Shown here: one piece after another, positions 7,367 to 18,241 of the stretch | Numbering within the stretch: the stretch's first letter is position 1 | How the letters are laid out: every line of letters begins with the position of its first letter | Origin: Erysipelotrichaceae bacterium | GTDB lineage: Bacteria > Bacillota_I > Bacilli_A > Erysipelotrichales > Erysipelotrichaceae | Length of the DNA: 32,000 nucleotides | Direction: 5' to 3' | Assembly: GCA_030604855.1 (NCBI GenBank) | Contig: JAUVVC010000005.1 | Location: 1 to 32,000 of the forward strand | Notes under the pieces: model-generated | Told to the model about the DNA's origin: nothing | Database searches by the model: none | What the model saw: only the letters and a program-made list of their open reading frames with translations | Program-made: the position numbers and the translations under genes

Positions 7367-7388
7367 GTACTTGTTAATGTTTTAACAA
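7349..7388. promoter_or_regulatory. Two tandem Rex-type operators (TTGTTAA-N4-TTAACAA)
   Basis: Site B at 7371-7388, TTGTTAATGTTTTAACAA, is a perfect TTGTTAA-N4-TTAACAA palindrome. Site A at 7349-7366, TTGTTAAAATATTGTCAA, has 2 mismatches and overlaps the -35. The two sites are separated by GTAC. Confidence 0.7.
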
Positions 7389-7455
7389 TACAAAAATATG
7401 AATCTCCGTTAACTGAATTTCGTGATGATCATCATATTCTGAGAGAAGTGTGAAT

Positions 7456-7489
7456 TCTTCATCGCCTTGTCTCATATGAAGTCTATGAT
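7456..7489 (+). promoter_or_regulatory. Response-regulator-box promoter (distal, ~360 nt upstream of copB)
   Basis: TCTTCAT-CGCC-TTGTCTC-ATATGAAGTC-TATGAT. The spacing is identical to the five other sites in the copper island. Confidence 0.5.
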
Positions 7490-7744
7490 ATGTAAAAGAT
7501 GTGATGCATACATCATGATGACAAGAACGTGGAAAGATCAAATTTAGAAGTCATTTGAGAATATCATTCCGATTGAGCTATAGATAAAATAACTCTTATT
7601 TCCAGAATCTAAAGTATTGGGTAAGATGGATAATTATCGCAGAGAAAAGAACGAAGAATCTCAGAAAGTATTGAGATTGTTTTCTATCCACAATAACTGA
7701 GAATAAACAGCGCTTTAAACTAAAGAATAATTGAAGTAAAACAC

Positions 7745-7771
7745 TTGATAAATACCCCTTGGGGGTATAAT
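7745..7771 (+). promoter_or_regulatory. Proximal copB promoter with an overlapping CsoR-type operator
   Basis: ATACCCCTTGGGGGTAT (7752-7768) has 7-bp GC-tract arms of the CsoR operator type. It overlaps the -10 TATAAT (7766-7771). TTGATA at 7745-7750 is a possible -35, but the spacer is only 15 nt. Confidence 0.7.
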
Positions 7772-7849
7772 ATATCATTATAACGATAATCACGTCATTG
7801 TTGTAAGTTTAACTATAAAGACGAATGATTATCTGAAAGAGGAGCAAAT

Positions 7850-9967
7850 ATGTCGAATTCTGATAAATCTTCTAAACATGTCCATTCGGAACACGAAACA
7901 ATGCATGATCATAAGCATTCATCAAAAACAATGGATAAAGAATCTTCAAGCAAGCAAAACGAAGAGAATACTGTAAGTCACTTGCACATGGACCATGAGG
8001 CTAAACCACACAGTGAAGGGCATCACGATCATCATGCGATGATGGTTGAGGATTTCAAGAAGCGTTTTTTCATTTCATTGGTGTTAACACTACCAATATT
8101 GTTGCTATCACCCATGATACAAATGTTCATGGGGGTAGATTGGCGCTTTCCAGGGGATACATATATTTTGTTTGGGTTGTCGACCCTGCTCTTTATCTAT
8201 GGAGGAAAACCTTTCTTAAAAGGAGCGGTGGATGAATTTAATCAAAAATCACCTGCCATGATGATGTTGATCGCATTGGCGATCAGTGTTTCTTATCTCT
8301 ATAGTGTGTTGACGGTCTTTGTTTTGCAGGGAAATGATTTCTTCTGGGAACTTGCAACCTTGATATCCATCATGTTGTTGGGGCATTGGATCGAGATGCG
8401 ATCTGTCTTAGGTGCATCTAAAGCGCTTGAAGAACTCGTTAAACTTATGCCAGATACCGCGCATATGATTCACGATGATGGTGAAATCATGGAACATGCA
8501 CTTGACCACTTCAAAGTAGGATTCAATGTAATGGTAAAACCGGGTGAGAAAATACCTCTGGATGGTGTGATCTATGAAGGTGTCTCTTCCGTCAATGAAT
8601 CCATGATCACAGGTGAATCCGTTCCTGTTGAAAAAGGGATCGGTGATGATATCATCGGAGGATCGATTAATGGTGATGGTGTATTAAAGTTTACGATCAC
8701 AAAAGTTGGAGAAGATACTTTCTTATCTCAAGTCATCAAACTTGTTCGTGAAGCGCAAGCATCGAAATCAAAAACACAAAGATTGGCAGATGTAGCGGCT
8801 AAATGGTTGTTCTACATCGCAGTGGTTTCAGGTTTGTTGACGTTTGTTATCTGGTTGATGTTTGGAGCGGAAATCGGATTTGCGATAGAAAGAACCGTCA
8901 CTGTCATCGTCATTTCATGTCCGCATGCTTTAGGTTTGGCGACACCGTTGGTCACAGCTGTCTCCACAAGTATCGGTGCAAAGAAGGGACTACTTGTCCG
9001 CAATCGTGCTGCTTTCGAAGAAGCTCGTAAGCTTACAACCGTTGTTTTCGATAAGACGGGAACACTAACTGAAGGTGCCTTTGGTGTCACAGACATAATT
9101 GCATATAATATTGATAAACAAGAACTTCTAAAATTGGCGTATGCTGTTGAAATGAATTCTGAACACCCAATTGCGAAGGGAATTGTTGATGAAGGCAAAC
9201 GAATCGGTCTTAATATGTTGGATGTCAAAGACTTCCAAGCGCTCCCAGGCAAGGGTTTGCGTGCAAGTGTTGAAGGTCGAGAAATCATGATCGTCAGCCC
9301 AGGATATCTTAGAACTGCAGACATCCAATATGATCACAAACAGTATGAAGCATTGGCAATCGTAGGAAAGACAGTTGTCTTTGTACTAGAAGATGATAAG
9401 TTGATTGGCATGATCGCATTGTCCGATAAAGTTCGCACAACCGCGATTGAAGCAATCAAAGTGTTGAAGCAAATGAATATTGAAACAGTTATGCTGACAG
9501 GTGACAATCAACGCGTTGCTGAATATGTAGGGAAGCAACTTGAAATCAATACCGTAATCGCTGAAGTTCTACCGCACCAAAAAGCTCAGAAAATCGAAGA
9601 ACTTAGAGGTCCAGGTAAATTTATTGCTATGACGGGAGATGGGATCAATGATGCGCCTTCATTGGCAAAAGCGGATCTTGGCATTGCTATTGGTGCAGGG
9701 ACGGATGTGGCGATAGAAACAGCAGATATCATCCTTGTTAAGAGCAATCCATTGGATGTTGTTAATATCATAAAGCTCTCTAAGGCGACCTATCGTAAAA
9801 TGGTAGAGAACTTGTTCTGGGCTACAGCTTATAACATCATTGCATTACCACTAGCAGCGGGTGTTTTGATGAATCAAGGTATCATGATTTCACCAGCGAT
9901 TGGTGCTGTCTTGATGTCGATGAGTACGATCATCGTTGCAATCAACGCGAGAAGATTGAAAATATAG
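7850..9967 (+). CDS. copB: Copper-translocating P1B-type ATPase, CopB-like (P1B-3: His-rich N-terminus, CPH motif)
   Basis: The N-terminus is His-rich (HVHSEHETMHDHKH..HLHMDHEAKPHSEGHHDHHAMM). The TM6 motif is SCPHALGLATP. Also present: the phosphorylation site DKTGTLT, the hinge GDGINDAP and the HP motif SEHPIA. AGAGGAG ribosome-binding site. Confidence 0.92.
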   Translation: MSNSDKSSKHVHSEHETMHDHKHSSKTMDKESSSKQNEENTVSHLHMDHEAKPHSEGHHDHHAMMVEDFKKRFFISLVLTLPILLLSPMIQMFMGVDWRFPGDTYILFGLSTLLFIYGGKPFLKGAVDEFNQKSPAMMMLIALAISVSYLYSVLTVFVLQGNDFFWELATLISIMLLGHWIEMRSVLGASKALEELVKLMPDTAHMIHDDGEIMEHALDHFKVGFNVMVKPGEKIPLDGVIYEGVSSVNESMITGESVPVEKGIGDDIIGGSINGDGVLKFTITKVGEDTFLSQVIKLVREAQASKSKTQRLADVAAKWLFYIAVVSGLLTFVIWLMFGAEIGFAIERTVTVIVISCPHALGLATPLVTAVSTSIGAKKGLLVRNRAAFEEARKLTTVVFDKTGTLTEGAFGVTDIIAYNIDKQELLKLAYAVEMNSEHPIAKGIVDEGKRIGLNMLDVKDFQALPGKGLRASVEGREIMIVSPGYLRTADIQYDHKQYEALAIVGKTVVFVLEDDKLIGMIALSDKVRTTAIEAIKVLKQMNIETVMLTGDNQRVAEYVGKQLEINTVIAEVLPHQKAQKIEELRGPGKFIAMTGDGINDAPSLAKADLGIAIGAGTDVAIETADIILVKSNPLDVVNIIKLSKATYRKMVENLFWATAYNIIALPLAAGVLMNQGIMISPAIGAVLMSMSTIIVAINARRLKI

Positions 9968-10043
9968 AAGGTATATACTCTGATAAAGCTCTCAGGATTT
10001 TGTGTATATTGACTTGGTAGTACAAAGATTTGATCTAACGATT

Positions 10044-10077
10044 TCTTCATCACTTTGTCACATCTTAATCGTAAACT
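10044..10077 (+). promoter_or_regulatory. Response-regulator-box promoter upstream of the SHOCT gene
   Basis: TCTTCAT-CACT-TTGTCAC-ATCTTAATCG-TAAACT. The AGGAGG ribosome-binding site and the ATG at 10099 follow directly. Confidence 0.55.
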
Positions 10078-10098
10078 CAAAGCATAGGAGGTGATTGT

Positions 10099-10275
10099 AT
10101 GGGAATCATCGGTTTGTTATTAATCATCTGGTTGGTTATGGAATTCACAGGACATCGTCCGTGGGAAAGTAGATATCCATCGCAGACATCCTCTGTTGAA
10201 ATCCTTAAGGAACGTTATGCGAGAGGTGAGATTTCACGCGATGCTTATCTAGAAGCACTGAAGTTGATCCGCTAA
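10099..10275 (+). CDS. SHOCT-domain small membrane protein (58 aa; absent from the ORF track)
   Basis: MGIIGLLLIIWLVMEFTGHRPWESRYPSQTSSVEILKERYARGEISRDAYLEALKLIR. It has one N-terminal TM helix and the SHOCT signature ILKERYARGEIS..Y. AGGAGG ribosome-binding site 7 nt upstream. Confidence 0.8.
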   Translation: MGIIGLLLIIWLVMEFTGHRPWESRYPSQTSSVEILKERYARGEISRDAYLEALKLIR

Positions 10276-10286
10276 AAAGTGGATCT

Positions 10287-10320
10287 TCTTCATTAAATCT
10301 TCATATCAATCAAATACGAT
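10287..10320 (+). promoter_or_regulatory. Response-regulator-box promoter upstream of copZ
   Basis: TCTTCAT-TAAA-TCTTCAT-ATCAATCAAA-TACGAT. This is a perfect 11-bp-phased direct repeat. The reverse complement reads TGAAGATTTAATGAAGA. Confidence 0.65.
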
Positions 10321-10383
10321 AAACATGGAATATTTCTATTTTTTTCGTGTTTGTTGAGTATCAATTTGAAAGGAAGTGAATAA

Positions 10384-10593
10384 ATGTATAAAACATTAAT
10401 CATCGATGGGATGCACTGTGGACATTGTGCGGGACTGGTTCAAGTTGAACTGTTTCGTATTCCTCAAGTCAGGGATGTGTCCGTCAATGTCACAAAACGC
10501 AATGCAATCGTTCGCATCGATTCTTCTGTGTCGTTTGAGCAGTTTGCCAAACATGTGGCTGAAGCAGGCTATACCTTGGAACGCTTGATATAA
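10384..10593 (+). CDS. copZ: Copper chaperone, HMA domain
   Basis: 69 aa with the GMHCGHC (MxCxxC) metal-binding loop and a beta-alpha-beta-beta-alpha-beta length and pattern. GAAAGGAAG ribosome-binding site. Confidence 0.9.
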   Translation: MYKTLIIDGMHCGHCAGLVQVELFRIPQVRDVSVNVTKRNAIVRIDSSVSFEQFAKHVAEAGYTLERLI

Positions 10594-10595
10594 AA

Positions 10596-10613
10596 AAGAC
10601 ATTTGCATGTCTT
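10596..10613 (-). terminator. Rho-independent terminator, oriented for the minus-strand peptide gene
   Basis: AAGACAT-gcaa-ATGTCTT hairpin. On the minus strand TTTTTTA follows it. On the plus strand (after copZ) no T-tract follows it. Confidence 0.7.
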
Positions 10614-10707
10614 ACATTCCAAATAACATCATCTGAATCATATCTGCCAATTCTTGTCCACGCATTCCACACATGCGGATGCAGTTGGCCAATGCCAATC
10701 CGTTCAT
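10612..10707 (-). CDS. Unannotated 31-aa Met/Cys-rich peptide (MNGLALANCIRMCGMRGQELADMIQMMLFGM)
   Basis: AAGGAGG ribosome-binding site 7 nt upstream of the ATG (10707). TAA stop at 10614-10612. It has its own terminator and its own response-regulator-box promoter. 7 Met and 2 Cys in 31 residues. Too short for the ORF track. Confidence 0.6.
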   Translation of the reverse strand: MNGLALANCIRMCGMRGQELADMIQMMLFGM

Positions 10708-10730
10708 TTCTATACCTCCTTGATGAAGAA

Positions 10731-10764
10731 AGTCTAACAAGAAGCTGTGAAGATTTGATGGTGA
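10731..10764 (-). promoter_or_regulatory. Response-regulator-box promoter of the 31-aa peptide gene
   Basis: The minus strand reads TCACCAT-CAAA-TCTTCAC-AGCTTCTTGT-TAGACT. The spacing matches the five plus-strand sites. Confidence 0.55.
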
Positions 10765-10772
10765 AAAAAGTG

Positions 10773-10801
10773 TTGAATTGAAAAATCAAATTCGATAAAC
10801 T
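10773..10801 (+). promoter_or_regulatory. Sigma-A-type promoter for the HMA-like gene
   Basis: TTGAAT (10773-10778), a 17-nt spacer, then TAAACT (10796-10801). Confidence 0.5.
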
Positions 10802-10822
10802 GTTGTGGGGAGAAAAGAGGTT

Positions 10823-11038
10823 ATGATGCGGATTTTGCGTCTGAAAGTGGATCAGCTCCACGATTATCACAGTGTTCGAAACATTCGAACGAATTTATTG
10901 AACATGCGAGGCATTCAATATGTTCGGGTCACGCGTGATCTAGGGCATATCTTGGTTGAATATATGGATGCGGCGTTATCACCCGCAATGATCATGATGC
11001 AAATTGAACGAATGGGACATCAGGTCAAGATCTACTAA
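10823..11038 (+). CDS. HMA-like (ferredoxin-fold) small protein lacking the CxxC motif
   Basis: MMRILRLKVDQLHDYHSVRNIRTNLLNMRGIQYVRVTRDLGHILVEYMD..MIMMQIERMGHQVKIY. Length and hydrophobic pattern match an HMA domain, but the metal loop reads QLHDYHS and the protein has no Cys. The start is ATG 10823 or 10826, after AAGAGG. The track's 10805 GTG start is less likely. Confidence 0.6.
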   Translation: MMRILRLKVDQLHDYHSVRNIRTNLLNMRGIQYVRVTRDLGHILVEYMDAALSPAMIMMQIERMGHQVKIY

Positions 11039-11040
11039 GT

Positions 11041-11074
11041 TCTTCATCAATTCTACATATGCTTACGCTATACT
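11041..11074 (+). promoter_or_regulatory. Response-regulator-box promoter upstream of the lipoprotein gene
   Basis: TCTTCAT-CAAT-TCTACAT-ATGCTTACGC-TATACT. Confidence 0.65.
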
Positions 11075-11104
11075 CCACATGCAAATTATTTGCAGGAGTA
11101 AACG

Positions 11105-11767
11105 ATGAAAAAATATCTGATTGTACTTGGCTTATTGAGTATCGTATTAGTGGGTTGTACTGCACAAACCAAACCTGAACCGGTAGTTGAAATTCCGGTT
11201 GAAGTGGAACCCTCTGTGGCGTCGTTTGATGCTTTGGGGACGTCCATCGCATGGACACAAGAAGCGAATGGCTTTGGTTTGATTGCGCCAGATGGAAGTG
11301 CGAGTGTATTCATCGCACAAAACTTTAGTGGAGCTCAAGATATTGTCTTGCGTGTGGATGCGACACCGTTTATCGCAGCAGGTTTGGATGTGACGAAGTT
11401 GTCAGAAACATCATTTGTCGATGGCCTTCTAACCTACAGTGTTGATCTGGATGGATCAAAGACCTACGCGAATGTTGTGGAAGCCTTTACGGATATCGTA
11501 TCCATACAAGCAGACTTGGTTGGGTATCATGCGGCCTTGGATCATTATGGTTTAAGTTTGAATGATGGAAATGTCTTTGAATGGGCAGCGGATGTGAAGA
11601 CCAACGATAAAGACATCGTCTTTGTATTGAACCCACAAAGTTTGATGGATGCCGGTGTGGATGTGGAAAATATTGAAGGTTGGATTTTTGCGGAAGTTGA
11701 AATCATGTTGGCAGATGGTACGATGAAAATGGTTCCGAAGTTGTTGAAACCGTTTGATTTGAACTAA
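11105..11767 (+). CDS. Lipoprotein of unknown function (acidic, 220 aa)
   Basis: Signal peptide plus lipobox MKKYLIVLGLLSIVLVGC. CAGGAG ribosome-binding site. I recognise no family. Two loosely similar internal segments end ..DIVLRVDATPFIAAGLDV and ..DIVFVLNPQSLMDAGVDV. Confidence 0.75.
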   Translation: MKKYLIVLGLLSIVLVGCTAQTKPEPVVEIPVEVEPSVASFDALGTSIAWTQEANGFGLIAPDGSASVFIAQNFSGAQDIVLRVDATPFIAAGLDVTKLSETSFVDGLLTYSVDLDGSKTYANVVEAFTDIVSIQADLVGYHAALDHYGLSLNDGNVFEWAADVKTNDKDIVFVLNPQSLMDAGVDVENIEGWIFAEVEIMLADGTMKMVPKLLKPFDLN

Positions 11768-11800
11768 GCATTCCTTTGCGTCATACTTAATAATATAAAC

Positions 11801-11821
11801 AAGCTCAAAATCTTTGAGCTT
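11801..11821 (+). terminator. Hairpin (weak terminator or attenuator) between the lipoprotein gene and the response-regulator gene
   Basis: AAGCTCAAA-atc-TTTGAGCTT, a 9-bp stem. Only a short interrupted T run (TCGTTG) follows, so read-through into the two-component genes is plausible. Confidence 0.45.
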
Positions 11822-11840
11822 TCGTTGTAGGAGCGGATCC

Positions 11841-12536
11841 ATGTCCTCAAGAAACATACTCATCGTTGAAGATGAACTCAAGTTAGTGGAAGTCTTAAAA
11901 GCCAACTTCGAACATAAGGGTGATCGCGTTTTTGTTGCGCACGATGGCTTGAGTGCGCTTGATATCGCACGAAGCGAAGACATCGATCTTGTGCTCTTGG
12001 ATTGGATGTTGCCACTGATGAGTGGGGATGTCGTTCTTCAGAATCTTCGGAACTTTTCACGGGTACCTGTGATCATGCTTACAGCGCGCTCAGGTGAAAG
12101 TGATATCGTGGATGGGTTGAAACTGGGATCGGATGATTATCTCACCAAGCCTTTCAGTCTTAAAGAATTGAACGCAAGGATTGAAGCCGTCTTGAGACGC
12201 TCACCCGAGTCGAATCAACCCATCTATCAAAAGTTGAAGTTGGATGATCGTTTGACCATTGATTTCGATTCACATCGGATCACCTGCAATCAAGAAATTG
12301 TTCATCTCACACCCAATGAGTTCAAACTGCTGACCATTTTAATCAAACACCCACAGCGTGTTTTCACCCGTGAAGAATTGGTGACCTCTGCTTTTGGGGA
12401 TGATTTCGATGGTTTTGATCGGACGGTGGATACACACATCAAGAACCTTCGGATGAAGTTGGAGGTGGACCCTAAACAGCCTAAAATCATCATTACGGTT
12501 TTTGGCGTTGGCTATCGTTACGGTGGAAATGTATGA
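11841..12536 (+). CDS. OmpR/PhoB-family response regulator (CopR-like by context)
   Basis: Receiver domain (ILIVEDE.., DLVLLDWMLP, LTKPF) plus a winged-helix output domain (..LTPNEFKLL..VDTHIKNLRMKL..VFGVGYRY). I place the start at ATG 11841, after AGGAG. The track's 11814 TTG start is an extension. Confidence 0.9.
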   Translation: MSSRNILIVEDELKLVEVLKANFEHKGDRVFVAHDGLSALDIARSEDIDLVLLDWMLPLMSGDVVLQNLRNFSRVPVIMLTARSGESDIVDGLKLGSDDYLTKPFSLKELNARIEAVLRRSPESNQPIYQKLKLDDRLTIDFDSHRITCNQEIVHLTPNEFKLLTILIKHPQRVFTREELVTSAFGDDFDGFDRTVDTHIKNLRMKLEVDPKQPKIIITVFGVGYRYGGNV

Positions 12537-13927
12537 AGCGTACCTTGCGTCGTCAACTCACCTCAACGATTGTTTTAACCGTTTTAATTGCGGTTTCTTT
12601 TGTCAGCTTATTTTCAAGTTTCATCATTCATGATCATTTCAAAGGATACATCGAAGCTAAACAGACGCAAACCATCCAACAGTTGGTTGCACAAGTGGCC
12701 CAACAATACGAACTTGAAGAGGATCGTTGGGATGTGGAAAACATTCATGAGATTGGGATGGTGGCCTTATACAGTGGTTATATCATCAAAGTCAACGATG
12801 GAAATGGCCAGCTCATCTGGGATGCGGAGCTCGAAGACATGAGTGCTTGTGTTACGATTGCGGATGAAGTGACAGAACGCATGTTGAAGCAATTTCCAAA
12901 CCAAAAGGGTTCATTCAATGATAATCCGTATCCCTTGAGGGTTCAGGATGAAAGCATTGGGGTGGTGAACATCCGTCATTATGGACCGATTTTCTATTCC
13001 ATTGAAGATGAACGTTTCATCAATCAAGTTCAACAAATGTTGTGGCTCATTGCATTATTCAGCATTTTGCTAAGTAGCTTTGTAGGGCTCCATTTGGCTA
13101 AATCACTCAGTCGTCCCTTGACAAAATCCATCAATCAGACATCACTCATTGCTCAAGGCAACTATGGTGGTTTGATTGAAGATGACTCGAACATCGATGA
13201 AGTCCGCTCCCTCATCAAAGCCGTCAATCATTTGTCGACGACAATGGCAGAGCAGGATCGCTTGAAGAAACAACTCACATCCGATGTCGCACATGAACTA
13301 AGAACACCTTTATCAACGCTTGAAATCAGTATGGAAGCGGCGTTGGATGGCATTCTACCCATGGATCAAAAGCGCATGCAAGGCTTGTTGGATGAGATAC
13401 AGCGATTGAGTAAAATTGTGAAGGATCTGGACCAATTGAATCGAATTGAGGAAACGCAACGCTTAAATACTGTTCCATTTGAATTAAGTAGCTTGATTGA
13501 TGAGGTCATCCGTGCCCTTGAGATTCAAAGTCAAACAAAATCCATTCGAATCAAAACGAATGGGGACTCACTTTCTATTACAGGAGATCGTGATCGTTTG
13601 AACCAAGTCTTTTATAACCTAATCCTAAATGCTTTGAATTACTCAAATCCAAATTCAAACATCGAAGTCCAGTGGATGAGAATCCATGAAAACGTTCAAA
13701 TCACCATAAAAGACGAAGGCATCGGGATCCCTGAAAAAGAACTTCCGCATATCTTTGATCGCTTCTATCGTGTTGAGAGTGCCCGTGATCGCATCCGGGG
13801 TGGAAGTGGGATTGGTCTTGCCATCGTCAAACGTTTCATTGAAGCCCATAAGGGGTCGATCACAGTCACAAGTTCTGAAAATATCGGTACCACCTTCACG
13901 ATCACATTACCTTTAAAATCTTCATAA
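12533..13927 (+). CDS. Sensor histidine kinase (two TM helices, extracytoplasmic domain, HAMP, HisKA, HATPase_c)
   Basis: ATGA overlap with the response-regulator gene. H-box SDVAHELRTPLS, N-box NLILNALNYS, G-boxes DEGIGI and GGSGIGLAIV. A ~135-aa loop lies between TM1 (~res 12-32) and TM2 (~res 170-190). Confidence 0.9.
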   Translation: MKRTLRRQLTSTIVLTVLIAVSFVSLFSSFIIHDHFKGYIEAKQTQTIQQLVAQVAQQYELEEDRWDVENIHEIGMVALYSGYIIKVNDGNGQLIWDAELEDMSACVTIADEVTERMLKQFPNQKGSFNDNPYPLRVQDESIGVVNIRHYGPIFYSIEDERFINQVQQMLWLIALFSILLSSFVGLHLAKSLSRPLTKSINQTSLIAQGNYGGLIEDDSNIDEVRSLIKAVNHLSTTMAEQDRLKKQLTSDVAHELRTPLSTLEISMEAALDGILPMDQKRMQGLLDEIQRLSKIVKDLDQLNRIEETQRLNTVPFELSSLIDEVIRALEIQSQTKSIRIKTNGDSLSITGDRDRLNQVFYNLILNALNYSNPNSNIEVQWMRIHENVQITIKDEGIGIPEKELPHIFDRFYRVESARDRIRGGSGIGLAIVKRFIEAHKGSITVTSSENIGTTFTITLPLKSS

Positions 13928-13952
13928 GTTCTCCATAAGCATGGATTAGACT
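13919..13952 (+). promoter_or_regulatory. Response-regulator-box promoter upstream of the cueP-like gene
   Basis: TCTTCAT-AAGT-TCTCCAT-AAGCATGGAT-TAGACT. The first half-site is built from the last two codons and the stop of the kinase gene. The -10 ends 6 nt before the ATG at 13959. Confidence 0.6.
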
Positions 13953-13958
13953 GGTTAT

Positions 13959-14537
13959 ATGAAAATAAATAGAATGTTGAAAATAGGAGGCGCTTTGTTG
14001 ATCGCAATCACAATTGGCGTCAGTGCATTGTTGTTAAATACAAAACGAGTGAATGCAGAAAGTATTTTAGAACGTTTGGGCTTACAGAATCAAGACCTGA
14101 GCAGTGTCGTCTTAGCCTTGGATGAACGTCTGGATGAACCTCAAGATATCGGGGCACGCATCACGGGTGAAGACTTGCTTCTCTATCAAGGAGAAGAGGA
14201 GTTCAAAGTCGCAATACCCGATGGACTGTTCTTCGTATCAATTGCGCCATACATCAATGACGTCCATCCGTGTCAAATCCACAATCTGATCAGCTGTCGT
14301 GGTGAATTGTATGGTGAAACCATGCTCATCACCATCACATTAAATGATGGGACCGTGCTCTTCAGTGAAGAACGCACAACACAAGCCAATGGCTTCATCG
14401 GTCTCTGGTTACCAAGTGGGATCGAAGGAACCTTAAGTGTCGAGATGTCCAATCGTATCGTGACACATCCGATCTCAACCTATGCCAACAGTGATACCTG
14501 TATCACGACGCCTTTGAAGTTATTGCCTAAAGCTTAA
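13959..14537 (+). CDS. CueP-family extracytoplasmic copper-binding protein (signal or anchor sequence)
   Basis: N-terminal signal or anchor MKINRMLKIGGALLIAITIGVSALLL. It carries H103-x-C105-x7-C113 (HPCQIHNLISC) and C181. The Cys spacings (8 and 68) and the His at -2 match Salmonella CueP His94/Cys96/Cys104/Cys172 as I recall them. The start is uncertain. ATG 13959 has no ribosome-binding site, so the transcript may be leaderless. Alternatively an in-frame TTG at 13995 or 13998 follows AGGAGG. Confidence 0.7.
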   Translation: MKINRMLKIGGALLIAITIGVSALLLNTKRVNAESILERLGLQNQDLSSVVLALDERLDEPQDIGARITGEDLLLYQGEEEFKVAIPDGLFFVSIAPYINDVHPCQIHNLISCRGELYGETMLITITLNDGTVLFSEERTTQANGFIGLWLPSGIEGTLSVEMSNRIVTHPISTYANSDTCITTPLKLLPKA

Positions 14538-14620
14538 TGCTAATTGCTGGAATGCTTGCTCGATTGTTCCTTGTCCCCCCCTTTTAAAAACAAATATAGA
14601 CAAAGCATTCCTTTTGATAC

Positions 14621-17209: not shown

Positions 17210-17211
17210 TC

Positions 17212-17238
17212 AAAAAAAGATCTTCACAGATCTTTTTT
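17212..17238. terminator. Bidirectional terminator
   Basis: AAAAAAAGATCT-tcac-AGATCTTTTTT. The A-tract and T-tract flanks let it serve both convergent genes. Confidence 0.8.
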
Positions 17239-17242
17239 AGTC

Positions 17243-18241
17243 TCATCGATTGAACGTATACGGAATCAAACCCACCAATTCATGTGGGGCATACATTTCT
17301 TCCAGATAAAGCATATCTTCTAATGTCAACTTGAGCTCAAGCGCTTTAACCGCATCTTCCAAATGACTGATTTTGGTTGCGCCTACTATCGGTGAAACGA
17401 CTTGTGGACGATGCAAAAGCCAAGCTAAAGCCACATGAGCTCGTGGAACCTGGTACTTTTCAGCCAACGTTCCCACACGATCCACAATCAAGCGATCCGC
17501 TTCAGCGGTTTTTCCATACTTCGCTTTTCGTGTCTGATCGGTCTCTATCCGAGTGGATGTTTCATCTGGTGCTTTTGCCAGGATACCGGATGCCAAAGGA
17601 CTGTAAGGGGTCAGTGCGATCTTGTTCTCTGCACAGAAGGGAATCAATTCACGTTCATCTTCACGATAGATCAGATTGTAGTGATTCTGCATCGATACGA
17701 ACTTTGTCCATCCATTCTTCTCAGCGATATACTGTGCTTTTTGAAATTGCCAAGCATACATGGCAGAAGCACCGATGTAGCGCACCTTACCAATCTTAAC
17801 TAAATCATGCAAAGCTTCCATGGTTTCTTCAATAGGGGTGTTGTAATCCCAACGATGAATGATATAGAGATCTACATAATCCGTTTGAAGTCGTTTCAAG
17901 CTCTTATCAATCTCGCTCATGATGTGTTTACGGGATAAGCCTGCCCCGTTGGCACCTTCATGCATTCTGAAGTTGACTTTTGTCGCAATCACGACTTTAT
18001 CGCGATCCGCAAAATCGTTTAACGCTCTTCCTAGGTACTCCTCACTGGTGCCTGCGGAGTAGACGTTGGCTGTATCAAAGAAGTTGATGCCAAGATCCAA
18101 GGCGCGTTTGATGACCTCGCGACTCTGTGCTTCATCCACGACCCATTGGTGAAAGCCAGTGTTCACATCCCCGAAACCCATGGCACCTAAACAAATGCGT
18201 GATACTTCTAAACCCGTATTTCCAAATTTTACGTATTCCAT
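17243..18241 (-). CDS. Aldo/keto reductase (332 aa, YhdN/Tas-like class)
   Basis: MEYVKFGNTGLEVSRICLGAMGFG..FFDTANVYS..G.SEE.LG.. are AKR signature regions. GAGGAGG ribosome-binding site. Confidence 0.9.
   Translation of the reverse strand: MEYVKFGNTGLEVSRICLGAMGFGDVNTGFHQWVVDEAQSREVIKRALDLGINFFDTANVYSAGTSEEYLGRALNDFADRDKVVIATKVNFRMHEGANGAGLSRKHIMSEIDKSLKRLQTDYVDLYIIHRWDYNTPIEETMEALHDLVKIGKVRYIGASAMYAWQFQKAQYIAEKNGWTKFVSMQNHYNLIYREDERELIPFCAENKIALTPYSPLASGILAKAPDETSTRIETDQTRKAKYGKTAEADRLIVDRVGTLAEKYQVPRAHVALAWLLHRPQVVSPIVGATKISHLEDAVKALELKLTLEDMLYLEEMYAPHELVGLIPYTFNR

Follow-up and report, generated by a model that had tools for sequence, protein, structure and literature searches.

The window analysed here is a stretch of 32,000 nucleotides, positions 1 to 32,000 of contig JAUVVC010000005.1 of an Erysipelotrichaceae bacterium (assembly GCA_030604855.1), and it holds a cluster of copper-related genes together with an OmpR/HisKA two-component system. 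Five strong promoters of this cluster carry the same site, two direct half-sites set at a fixed distance from a -10 element, and we consider it likely that the regulator encoded among them binds all five, as the activator of a BaeSR/CopRS-like system that would most likely respond to extracytoplasmic copper. The sites are statistically exceptional, they are conserved, they are linked to one family of two-component systems, and their motif is that of the BaeR and CopR boxes. From these observations we infer that the regulator binds the sites, that it activates rather than represses, and that copper is the signal.

Five phased promoters in the copper cluster

The initial annotation of this DNA had listed six sites of 34 nt sharing one phased architecture. 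All six are present at the coordinates and with the sequences claimed, their internal phasing is identical, and each is intergenic or overlaps a gene end and is oriented toward a gene. Five of them are good promoters and the sixth, at 7456, is decayed. The scores given here in bits come from a weight matrix that is described in the following section.

7456..7489, plus strand: candidate regulator site and -10, degenerate, TCTTCATcgccTTGTCTC-N10-TATGAT, 360 nt before copB; -1.5 bits
10044..10077, plus strand: candidate regulator site and -10, SHOCT promoter, 21 nt before the SHOCT ATG; 18.6 bits
10287..10320, plus strand: candidate regulator site and -10, copZ promoter, 63 nt before copZ; 19.5 bits
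10731..10764, minus strand: candidate regulator site and -10, promoter of a 31-aa peptide, 23 nt before the open reading frame; 20.4 bits
11041..11074, plus strand: candidate regulator site and -10 of the operon for a lipoprotein, the response regulator and the histidine kinase, 30 nt before the lipoprotein gene; 33.8 bits
13919..13952, plus strand: candidate regulator site and -10, cueP promoter, the -10 lying 6 nt before the cueP ATG; 33.8 bits

The copZ site carries a perfect repeat, TCTTCATtaaaTCTTCAT, and the first half-site of the cueP site consists of the final codons and the stop codon of the kinase gene. With up to two mismatches allowed, the full pattern has 7 matches in the window against 1.8 expected, a number reached by none of 100 shuffles. 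The seventh match (21151, minus strand) was set aside as unrelated; the matrix gives it less than 8 bits. Apart from the five sites, the matrix exceeds 10 bits at one place only (17210-17243, 10.2 bits), by inspection a terminator-like hairpin, AAAAAAGATCTtcacAGATCTTTTTT, and this hit is probably due to chance. The repeat had also been proposed to stand in place of the -35 element. Consistent with this, a sigma-70 scan with a mandatory -35 recovered none of the six sites, as fits activator-dependent promoters.

The architecture in related loci

The comparison set comprised 45 loci that encode relatives of the kinase (from 81 % down to ~30 % identity) and five closer metagenomic loci. The weight matrix was built from 34 sites taken exclusively from loci whose kinase is at most 56 % identical, so that the window sequence contributed nothing to it. 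Scored with this matrix of distant loci, the five window sites reach 18.6-33.8 bits, while the null expectation at 18 bits or more is 0.005 hits per simulated window. The matrix consensus is TCTnCATAAnT-TCTaCATA-N9-TAnAnT, in which an A follows each half-site (at position 8 in 31 of the 34 sites and at position 19 in all 34), neither position having been constrained in the search.

The phasing emerges equally when it is not imposed. In ~0.8 Mb of non-redundant related loci, with the spacer left unforced, 74 half-site pairs are separated by 4 nt, as against 7-23 at other spacer lengths, and a TAnnnT lies exactly 10 nt downstream in 61 of these 74 pairs but in no more than 7 at any other offset. 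The architecture TCTnCAT-N4-TCTnCAT, N10, TAnnnT is thus strict throughout these loci. At a threshold of 14 bits, 887 kb of related loci contain 107 sites, which precede a small set of genes: cueP (16), peptidyl-prolyl isomerase (PPIase, 15), the 31-aa peptide (14), the lipoprotein (12), NlpC/P60 (8), copA (6), SHOCT (5), copZ (5), the response regulator (3), HMA::DsbD (3) and copB (1), with 16 targets unlabelled and 3 sites lacking a downstream open reading frame. The regulator-containing operon is always preceded by one site.

The initial annotation had suggested looking for the motif upstream of orthologous genes, and in the closest relatives it is there. In four loci whose kinases are 74-81 % identical to that of the window (L001, L048, L050 and L052), the SHOCT, copZ, peptide, lipoprotein and cueP sites are all kept at orthologous positions. 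The alignments show blocks of conservation at the half-sites and the -10 and again at the ribosome-binding site and start codon, whereas the flanks and the two spacers (N4 and N10) have diverged. In the window (13947-13961) and in all four relatives the cueP ATG lies 6 nt past the -10, and the codons that follow it specify a typical charged-then-hydrophobic signal sequence. Because of this position and these codons, the cueP messenger RNA is probably leaderless, beginning at the predicted transcription start, and such a start would lend independent support to the assignment of the cueP -10. Automatic gene calls place the cueP start further downstream in L050 and L054.

Regulator and kinase

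The two-component system is encoded between the lipoprotein and cueP genes:

11841..12536, plus strand: response regulator of the OmpR family, predicted to bind the sites (Pfam Response_reg and Trans_reg_C)
12533..13927, plus strand: sensor histidine kinase with two transmembrane helices, a ~135-aa extracytoplasmic PDC-like domain, HAMP, HisKA and HATPase

That the sites form one family tied to this adjacent OmpR/HisKA pair had been proposed from the window, and it holds well beyond it: the architecture recurs beside orthologous and distant kinases in dozens of loci, and in the window itself one site (11041) stands ahead of the regulator's own operon. Since the motif travels with the kinase family and precedes the regulator operon, and since no second OmpR-type regulator is labelled in the window, the local regulator is in our judgement by far the most likely binder of the sites. 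Its recognition helix (DRTVDTHIKNLR) is nearly identical to that of BaeR (DRTIDSHIKNLR). The regulator is 42 % identical to Corynebacterium-type CopR and 37 % to Escherichia coli BaeR, these two being 41 % identical to each other, and a PDB search also places RegX3 and MtrA among its close relatives. Neither the regulator nor the kinase passes any curated NCBIfam cut-off. The best named matches are PhoB (top), MtrA and BaeR for the regulator and BaeS for the kinase; the BaeSR models are missed (BaeS_SmeS, 230.9 bits against a cut-off of 500; BaeR, 179.9 against 380), and so are the models of the proteobacterial heavy-metal subfamilies (TIGR01387 for the regulator, 157.7 against 279.2; TIGR01386 for the kinase, 203.9 against 292.55).

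The structural model of the kinase N-terminus, a confident one (predicted local distance difference test, pLDDT, 81), places two transmembrane helices around a PDC/PAS-like domain. In Foldseek this sensor model is nearest to the extracellular domain of WalK, the fold being a generic PDC, and the Pfam CusS model matches the kinase with E = 0.0037, below its cut-off. Five residues, H72, M76, M103, C106 and M117, are invariant in kinase homologues down to 34 % identity; this set of His, Met and Cys residues suits the ligation of Cu(I) or Ag(I), which is suggestive only. In a more distant branch (kinases 30-36 % identical, from Lachnospiraceae, Oscillospiraceae and others) the Cys is kept and a different set of His residues is conserved.

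Target genes and small proteins

The genes downstream of the five strong sites, together with one gene divergent from the peptide promoter, are as follows.

10099..10275, plus strand: small membrane protein with a SHOCT domain (Pfam PF09851, E = 4e-6)
10384..10593, plus strand: copZ-like HMA copper chaperone with MxCxxC (Pfam HMA, E = 2e-12)
10612..10707, minus strand: 31-aa Cys/Met-rich small protein, MNGLALANCIRMCGMRGQELADMIQMMLFGM, without known family
10823..11038, plus strand: HMA_2-like small protein (Pfam HMA_2, E = 9e-4)
11105..11767, plus strand: lipoprotein of an uncharacterised family, with the invariant motifs GYHxxLDHYG and FEWAxD..NDKD
13959..14537, plus strand: CueP-family copper-binding protein (Pfam CueP, E = 8e-39; NCBIfam CueP_fam 129.7, cut-off 60)

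The CueP-family protein bears an N-terminal signal or anchor sequence. The 31-aa peptide has no Pfam match; besides the window, a tblastn search of the collected loci located it in 15 Erysipelotrichaceae loci (L001-L010, L016, L048-L050 and L052), with the consensus MxGLxLANCIxxxGxRGQELA[DE][CM]I[QH]MM. In 14 of these 16 loci it is the automatically assigned downstream reading frame of a site of at least 14 bits, and in L050 and L009 too a site lies directly upstream of its gene. The peptide could be a copper-binding peptide or buffer, or else a feedback modulator of the kinase. Its gene is usually divergent from another site-driven gene. In the window the divergent neighbour is the HMA_2 gene, which, read from the sequence, has a sigma-70-like promoter of its own (TTGAAT at 10773-10778, N17, TAAACT at 10796-10801), and the peptide-promoter site lies 9 bp upstream of the -35 of that promoter. 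The HMA_2 gene is a possible seventh target by divergent activation. A single regulator dimer might activate in both the peptide and the HMA_2 directions, as reported for C. glutamicum CopR.

The lipoprotein matches no Pfam or NCBIfam model. Its 717 detected homologues are all unnamed or 'hypothetical', none of them with a Pfam domain, and its AlphaFold2 model is confident (pLDDT 84.8; predicted template-modelling score 0.79) and finds no fold match in the PDB with Foldseek (best E = 0.19). It could be a copper-binding or co-sensing protein of the cell surface. Relatives encode it either within the regulator operon or after copA. Between the lipoprotein and regulator genes lies a hairpin with a 9-bp stem, AAGCTCAAAatcTTTGAGCTT (11797-11821), which may attenuate read-through into the regulator and kinase genes.

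The copB cassette and the decayed site

The site at 7456 had been counted as a distal promoter of copB, which would make copB a sixth target. The site is there, 360 nt before the gene, but copB is not a convincing target:

7745..7773, plus strand: proximal copB promoter, TTGATA-N17-TAATAT, enclosing the palindrome TACCCCTTGGGGGTA (7753-7767)
7850..9967, plus strand: copB-type copper P1B-ATPase with a His-rich N-terminus (Pfam E1-E2_ATPase; NCBIfam TIGR01511, 611 bits, cut-off 397)

The first half-site at 7456 is perfect, and the second (TTGTCTC) violates invariant positions. The region of ~7380-7489 has its homologue in the promoter region of the L050 SHOCT gene, spacer and -10 included (atttgaagtcTATGCT against atatgaagtcTATGAT). 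L048 and L052 lack copB between MaoC and SHOCT, SHOCT coming directly after MaoC or after MaoC and a flavodoxin gene, and in L050, too, no copB lies ahead of SHOCT. By this alignment, 7456 holds a decayed SHOCT promoter copy, the positional orthologue of the one that precedes SHOCT in the relatives. From the close relatives without copB and the homology of 7380-7489 to the L050 SHOCT promoter, the copB cassette appears to have been inserted directly downstream of the ancestral SHOCT promoter, with an intact second SHOCT promoter at 10044. The cassette (~7490-10043) is flanked by two SHOCT-promoter copies, an arrangement suggestive of insertion or recombination there. Plasmid sequences searched by megablast with 7400-14600 gave no match, and thus no evidence of a known mobile element.

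The perfect palindrome TACCCCTTGGGGGTA sits between the -35 and the -10 of the proximal copB promoter, and the same palindromic promoter lies ahead of the copB orthologues in L005 and L008; in L009, copB is preceded instead by a 17-bit site. We take the palindrome to be a putative CsoR-type operator. Read in this way, on copB's own promoter, it would place copB mainly under cytoplasmic copper control; the 7456 site, probably inactive or of little strength, would add a weak input at most. As a true sixth target, copB was largely rejected given its -1.5-bit relic of a site and its own palindromic promoter. A tblastn search of the window with the proteins of a relative found no csoR, DUF2933, HMA::DsbD or FTR1.

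Copper or envelope stress

In the Erysipelotrichaceae branch, the site is found ahead of further copper genes. In the more distant Erysipelotrichaceae loci L002-L010 and L016 (e.g. L003:3454-8410) it heads an operon in which copA (820 aa) is joined by csoR, DUF2933 and a fusion of HMA::DsbD_2 type, and which in L003 and L016 is extended by HMA_2/copZ-like genes, and in L005 and L007-L009 a gene for an FTR1-family permease is divergent from the peptide promoter. Copper is our best guess as the signal in this branch, drawn from the identity of the target genes only, and a number of points weigh against the reading as a whole. The source is an uncultured metagenome-assembled genome whose regulon is read from sequence only, and the in-genome scan covers just the 32 kb of the window. 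The regulator is comparably similar to CopR, BaeR, RegX3 and MtrA, so that protein similarity fixes no specificity. The sensor domain of the kinase has no PDB sequence match even at E = 10, and CusS (5ku5) is a weak structural match, at rank 22 with E ~0.1 in Foldseek. Finally, distant Clostridial loci (L012-L043) reuse the site as TCyCCATaaaaTCyCCAy-N10-TAnnnT (e.g. L013:11418-17169 and L027:7880-16838), where it precedes an operon of PrsA-like PPIase, CDF::Band7, Band7 and Band7 genes and another of NlpC/P60, response regulator and histidine kinase genes, while no site was found before the copA, often accompanied by copZ, that is nearby in many of these loci. This use of the site on envelope-type genes suggests that the ancestral signal may be envelope damage.

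A broader envelope-stress signal is for this reason a serious rival to copper, one that we hold to be unlikely, though well within reach: the kinase would sense envelope or folding damage, another thiophilic metal (Ag, Zn) or redox stress in the manner of BaeSR, with the copper genes as a lineage-specific extension of an envelope-stress regulon. The best NCBIfam match of the kinase (BaeS), the agreement of the half-site with the BaeR box, the PPIase, SPFH, CDF and NlpC/P60 genes that Clostridial homologues drive from the same site, and the lone invariant extracytoplasmic Cys (C106), which could be a redox sensor, all speak for it. It accounts less well for the Erysipelotrichaceae targets, which are copper-linked or restricted to the cluster (cueP, copZ, copA-csoR-DUF2933-HMA::DsbD, SHOCT, peptide and lipoprotein), for a His/Met/Cys set typical of Cu(I)/Ag(I) ligands, and for C. 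glutamicum CopRS, a system with the same DNA core that is strictly copper-specific (PMC3140484).

The remaining alternatives concern the sites themselves and are far less probable than an envelope signal. We give very little credit to the idea that another OmpR-family regulator encoded elsewhere, of PhoP/PhoB type, reads the motif and that the adjacent two-component system is only one of its targets. PhoB is the top NCBIfam match of the regulator, and two window sites have a pho-box-like second half-site (TTGTCAC or TTGTCTC), but the motif accompanies the kinase family across families and orders, at the kinase stop codon and before the regulator operon, the targets include no pst or pho genes, and the window has a single labelled regulator of this type. 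Nor is it at all likely that the regulator binds as a repressor, occluding the -35 region of constitutive promoters until a signal arrives. At about -40 to -23 a bound protein could indeed block the polymerase; however, promoters without a -35 are expected to be weak unaided, the identical geometry is established as activating for PhoB, and for BaeR at mdtA, and C. glutamicum CopR activates (PMC3140484). Least probable of all, to the point of being negligible, is that the sites resemble each other merely as repeats by descent, through local duplication of a promoter cassette and without a shared regulator. Duplication did take place at least once, in that 7456 and 10044 are two copies of the SHOCT promoter, but conservation is limited to the -10 and the half-sites, spacers vary from site to site and from species to species, and in distant taxa the architecture is met again ahead of genes that are not homologous.

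A model for the regulon

We thus favour a local activator that answers extracytoplasmic copper, and propose the following mechanism. A dimer of the phosphorylated regulator would bind two head-to-tail half-sites, each a TCTnCAT followed by an A/T-rich 4-mer, at 11-bp phasing. The bound site would span about -40 to -23, in promoters with a TAnnnT -10 and no -35. There the regulator would recruit RNA polymerase itself and so make up for the missing -35 contact, in the manner of pho-box promoters and of mdtA in E. coli. Target genes would stay silent until the kinase (12533-13927) is activated, its PDC-like domain with the invariant His, Met and Cys residues responding to copper, or to copper damage, outside the membrane. 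The output would consist of separate small units, namely SHOCT, copZ, the 31-aa Cys/Met peptide, the lipoprotein-regulator-kinase operon and a leaderless cueP, and the site ahead of the regulator operon would provide positive autoregulation as feedback. Cytoplasmic copper would be handled apart, through the putative CsoR operator on the inserted copB.

Accounts of copper sensing in Firmicutes generally centre on the cytoplasmic repressors CsoR and CopY, and in the literature that we searched we found no description of an extracytoplasmic copper-sensing two-component system for Firmicutes or Erysipelothrix. Other bacteria divide the task between two compartments, with CueR and CusRS in E. coli and with CsoR and CopRS in C. 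glutamicum. If the proposed mechanism is true, anaerobic gut and environmental Firmicutes share this two-compartment logic, the promoter code TCTnCATAAnTTCTnCATA, N9, TAnnnT is clean enough to be used for annotating regulons in metagenome-assembled genomes, two uncharacterised families (the 31-aa peptide and the lipoprotein) gain a testable copper context, and the BaeR and CopR boxes become linked as one shared recognition code. As comparative genomics the regulon is solid, with some new parts, though as a whole it would not surprise a specialist; the system itself is distinct and uncurated. A bolder view, which we put forward tentatively and think somewhat doubtful, is that of an undescribed and widespread Firmicutes family of BaeR/CopR type whose regulon was rewired from envelope-quality genes in Clostridia (PrsA-like foldase, SPFH, CDF and NlpC/P60) to the defence of Erysipelotrichaceae against extracytoplasmic copper. 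Its two constant targets without a characterised family, peptide and lipoprotein, would then be new parts of copper handling in Gram-positive bacteria.

Comparison with known systems

Among the closest known systems is CopRS of C. glutamicum, which like the window system is a Gram-positive OmpR/HisKA pair within a copper cluster (Schelder et al. 2011, PMC3140484). The CopR site given in the initial annotation, TGAAGATTTgaTGAAGATTT, is correct (PMC3140484); it was shown by electrophoretic mobility shift assay and mutation, and activation through it is strictly copper-specific (PMC3140484). It is a direct repeat, TGAAGATTTnnTGAAGATTT, in the form TGAAGATTT-N2-TGAAGATTT, with a TCTTCA core at 11-bp phasing, and its reverse complement reads TCTTCA-N5-TCTTCA; at the level of sequence the window sites, TCTTCA(T)-N4/5-TCTTCA, have the same core and phasing. 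The reverse complement of the copZ site with which it had been compared was short of 3 nt, and the correct sequence, TGAAGATTTAATGAAGAAGATCC, agrees with the CopR consensus at 15 of 18 positions by our count. The resemblance is real and reaches the content of the regulon. A search with the window CueP finds Corynebacterium plasmids on which cueP and a multicopper oxidase gene are divergent from copR-copS-HMA-copB, and on pLEW279b and pCha1 the published CopR site is located between these divergent operons. With cueP, an HMA protein and a copper ATPase present in the Corynebacterium cop regions, the gene content of the two regulons overlaps. On pLEW279b (L047, 6256-6289, minus strand) a second near-perfect CopR-type repeat, TCTTCATGAAATCTTCAT, lies ~120 nt upstream of a gene for a 'four-helix bundle copper-binding protein'. 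CopRS of C. glutamicum operates beside a separate CsoR system for cytoplasmic copper, as we propose for the window.

There are differences too. In C. glutamicum a single site serves two divergent operons and is not placed 10 bp from a recognisable -10, whereas the window has five promoters of pho-box type; the Corynebacterium cop region has a multicopper oxidase, of which there is none in the window cluster, and the window adds the peptide, SHOCT and lipoprotein targets. BLASTP of the kinase against CopS aligns window residues 153-461 with CopS 54-365 only (464 aa against 382 aa), so that the cytoplasmic parts align and the CopS sensor domain is unrelated to the extracytoplasmic domain of the window kinase. 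The description of the system as a CopRS analogue thus stands for predicted function, DNA motif and regulon content, and fails for family membership, sensor domain and curated cut-offs.

With BaeSR, the envelope-stress system of E. coli and Salmonella, the likeness is in the DNA as well as in the recognition helix and in the best named match of the kinase. The window half-site TCTnCATAA exactly fits the first of the published E. coli BaeR boxes, TCTNCANAA and TTTTTCTCCATDATTGGC (PMC3799227), and the mdtA promoter of E. coli K-12 (L053, ~433-468) reads TCCTCCAttttTCTCCCT-N11-TACACT, a repeat-to--10 layout like that of the window, which suggests that the BaeR box, the Corynebacterium CopR site and the window family represent one recognition code. 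The BaeS sensor domain does not align with that of the window kinase, and the BaeSR regulon comprises RND pumps and Spy, whereas the window targets are copper proteins in a Gram-positive host without a periplasm; the Clostridial relatives do control chaperone-like and efflux-like genes, as BaeSR does.

In pho-box promoters the box takes the position of the -35, at a distance of 10 bp from the -10. The pho-box-like geometry attributed to the window sites is borne out, with two 7-bp repeats, 4-bp A/T-rich spacers, 10 bp to the -10 and no -35, and PhoB sites are likewise two 7-bp direct repeats, each with a 4-bp A/T-rich tract (Blanco et al. 2002, quoted in PMC4971064). PhoB differs in its half-site, CTGTCAT against TCTnCAT, and the window has no phosphate genes and a kinase without PhoR architecture. 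The proteobacterial CusRS, CopRS and PcoRS systems likewise consist of an OmpR/HisKA pair with a PDC-like sensor, autoregulation and extracytoplasmic copper sensing, the last of these predicted for the window. The boxes of proteobacterial CusR and CopR are different sequences. Judged by its sites, then, the window system follows a recognition code of BaeR/CopR type, and it should not be counted as a member of the CopRS family.

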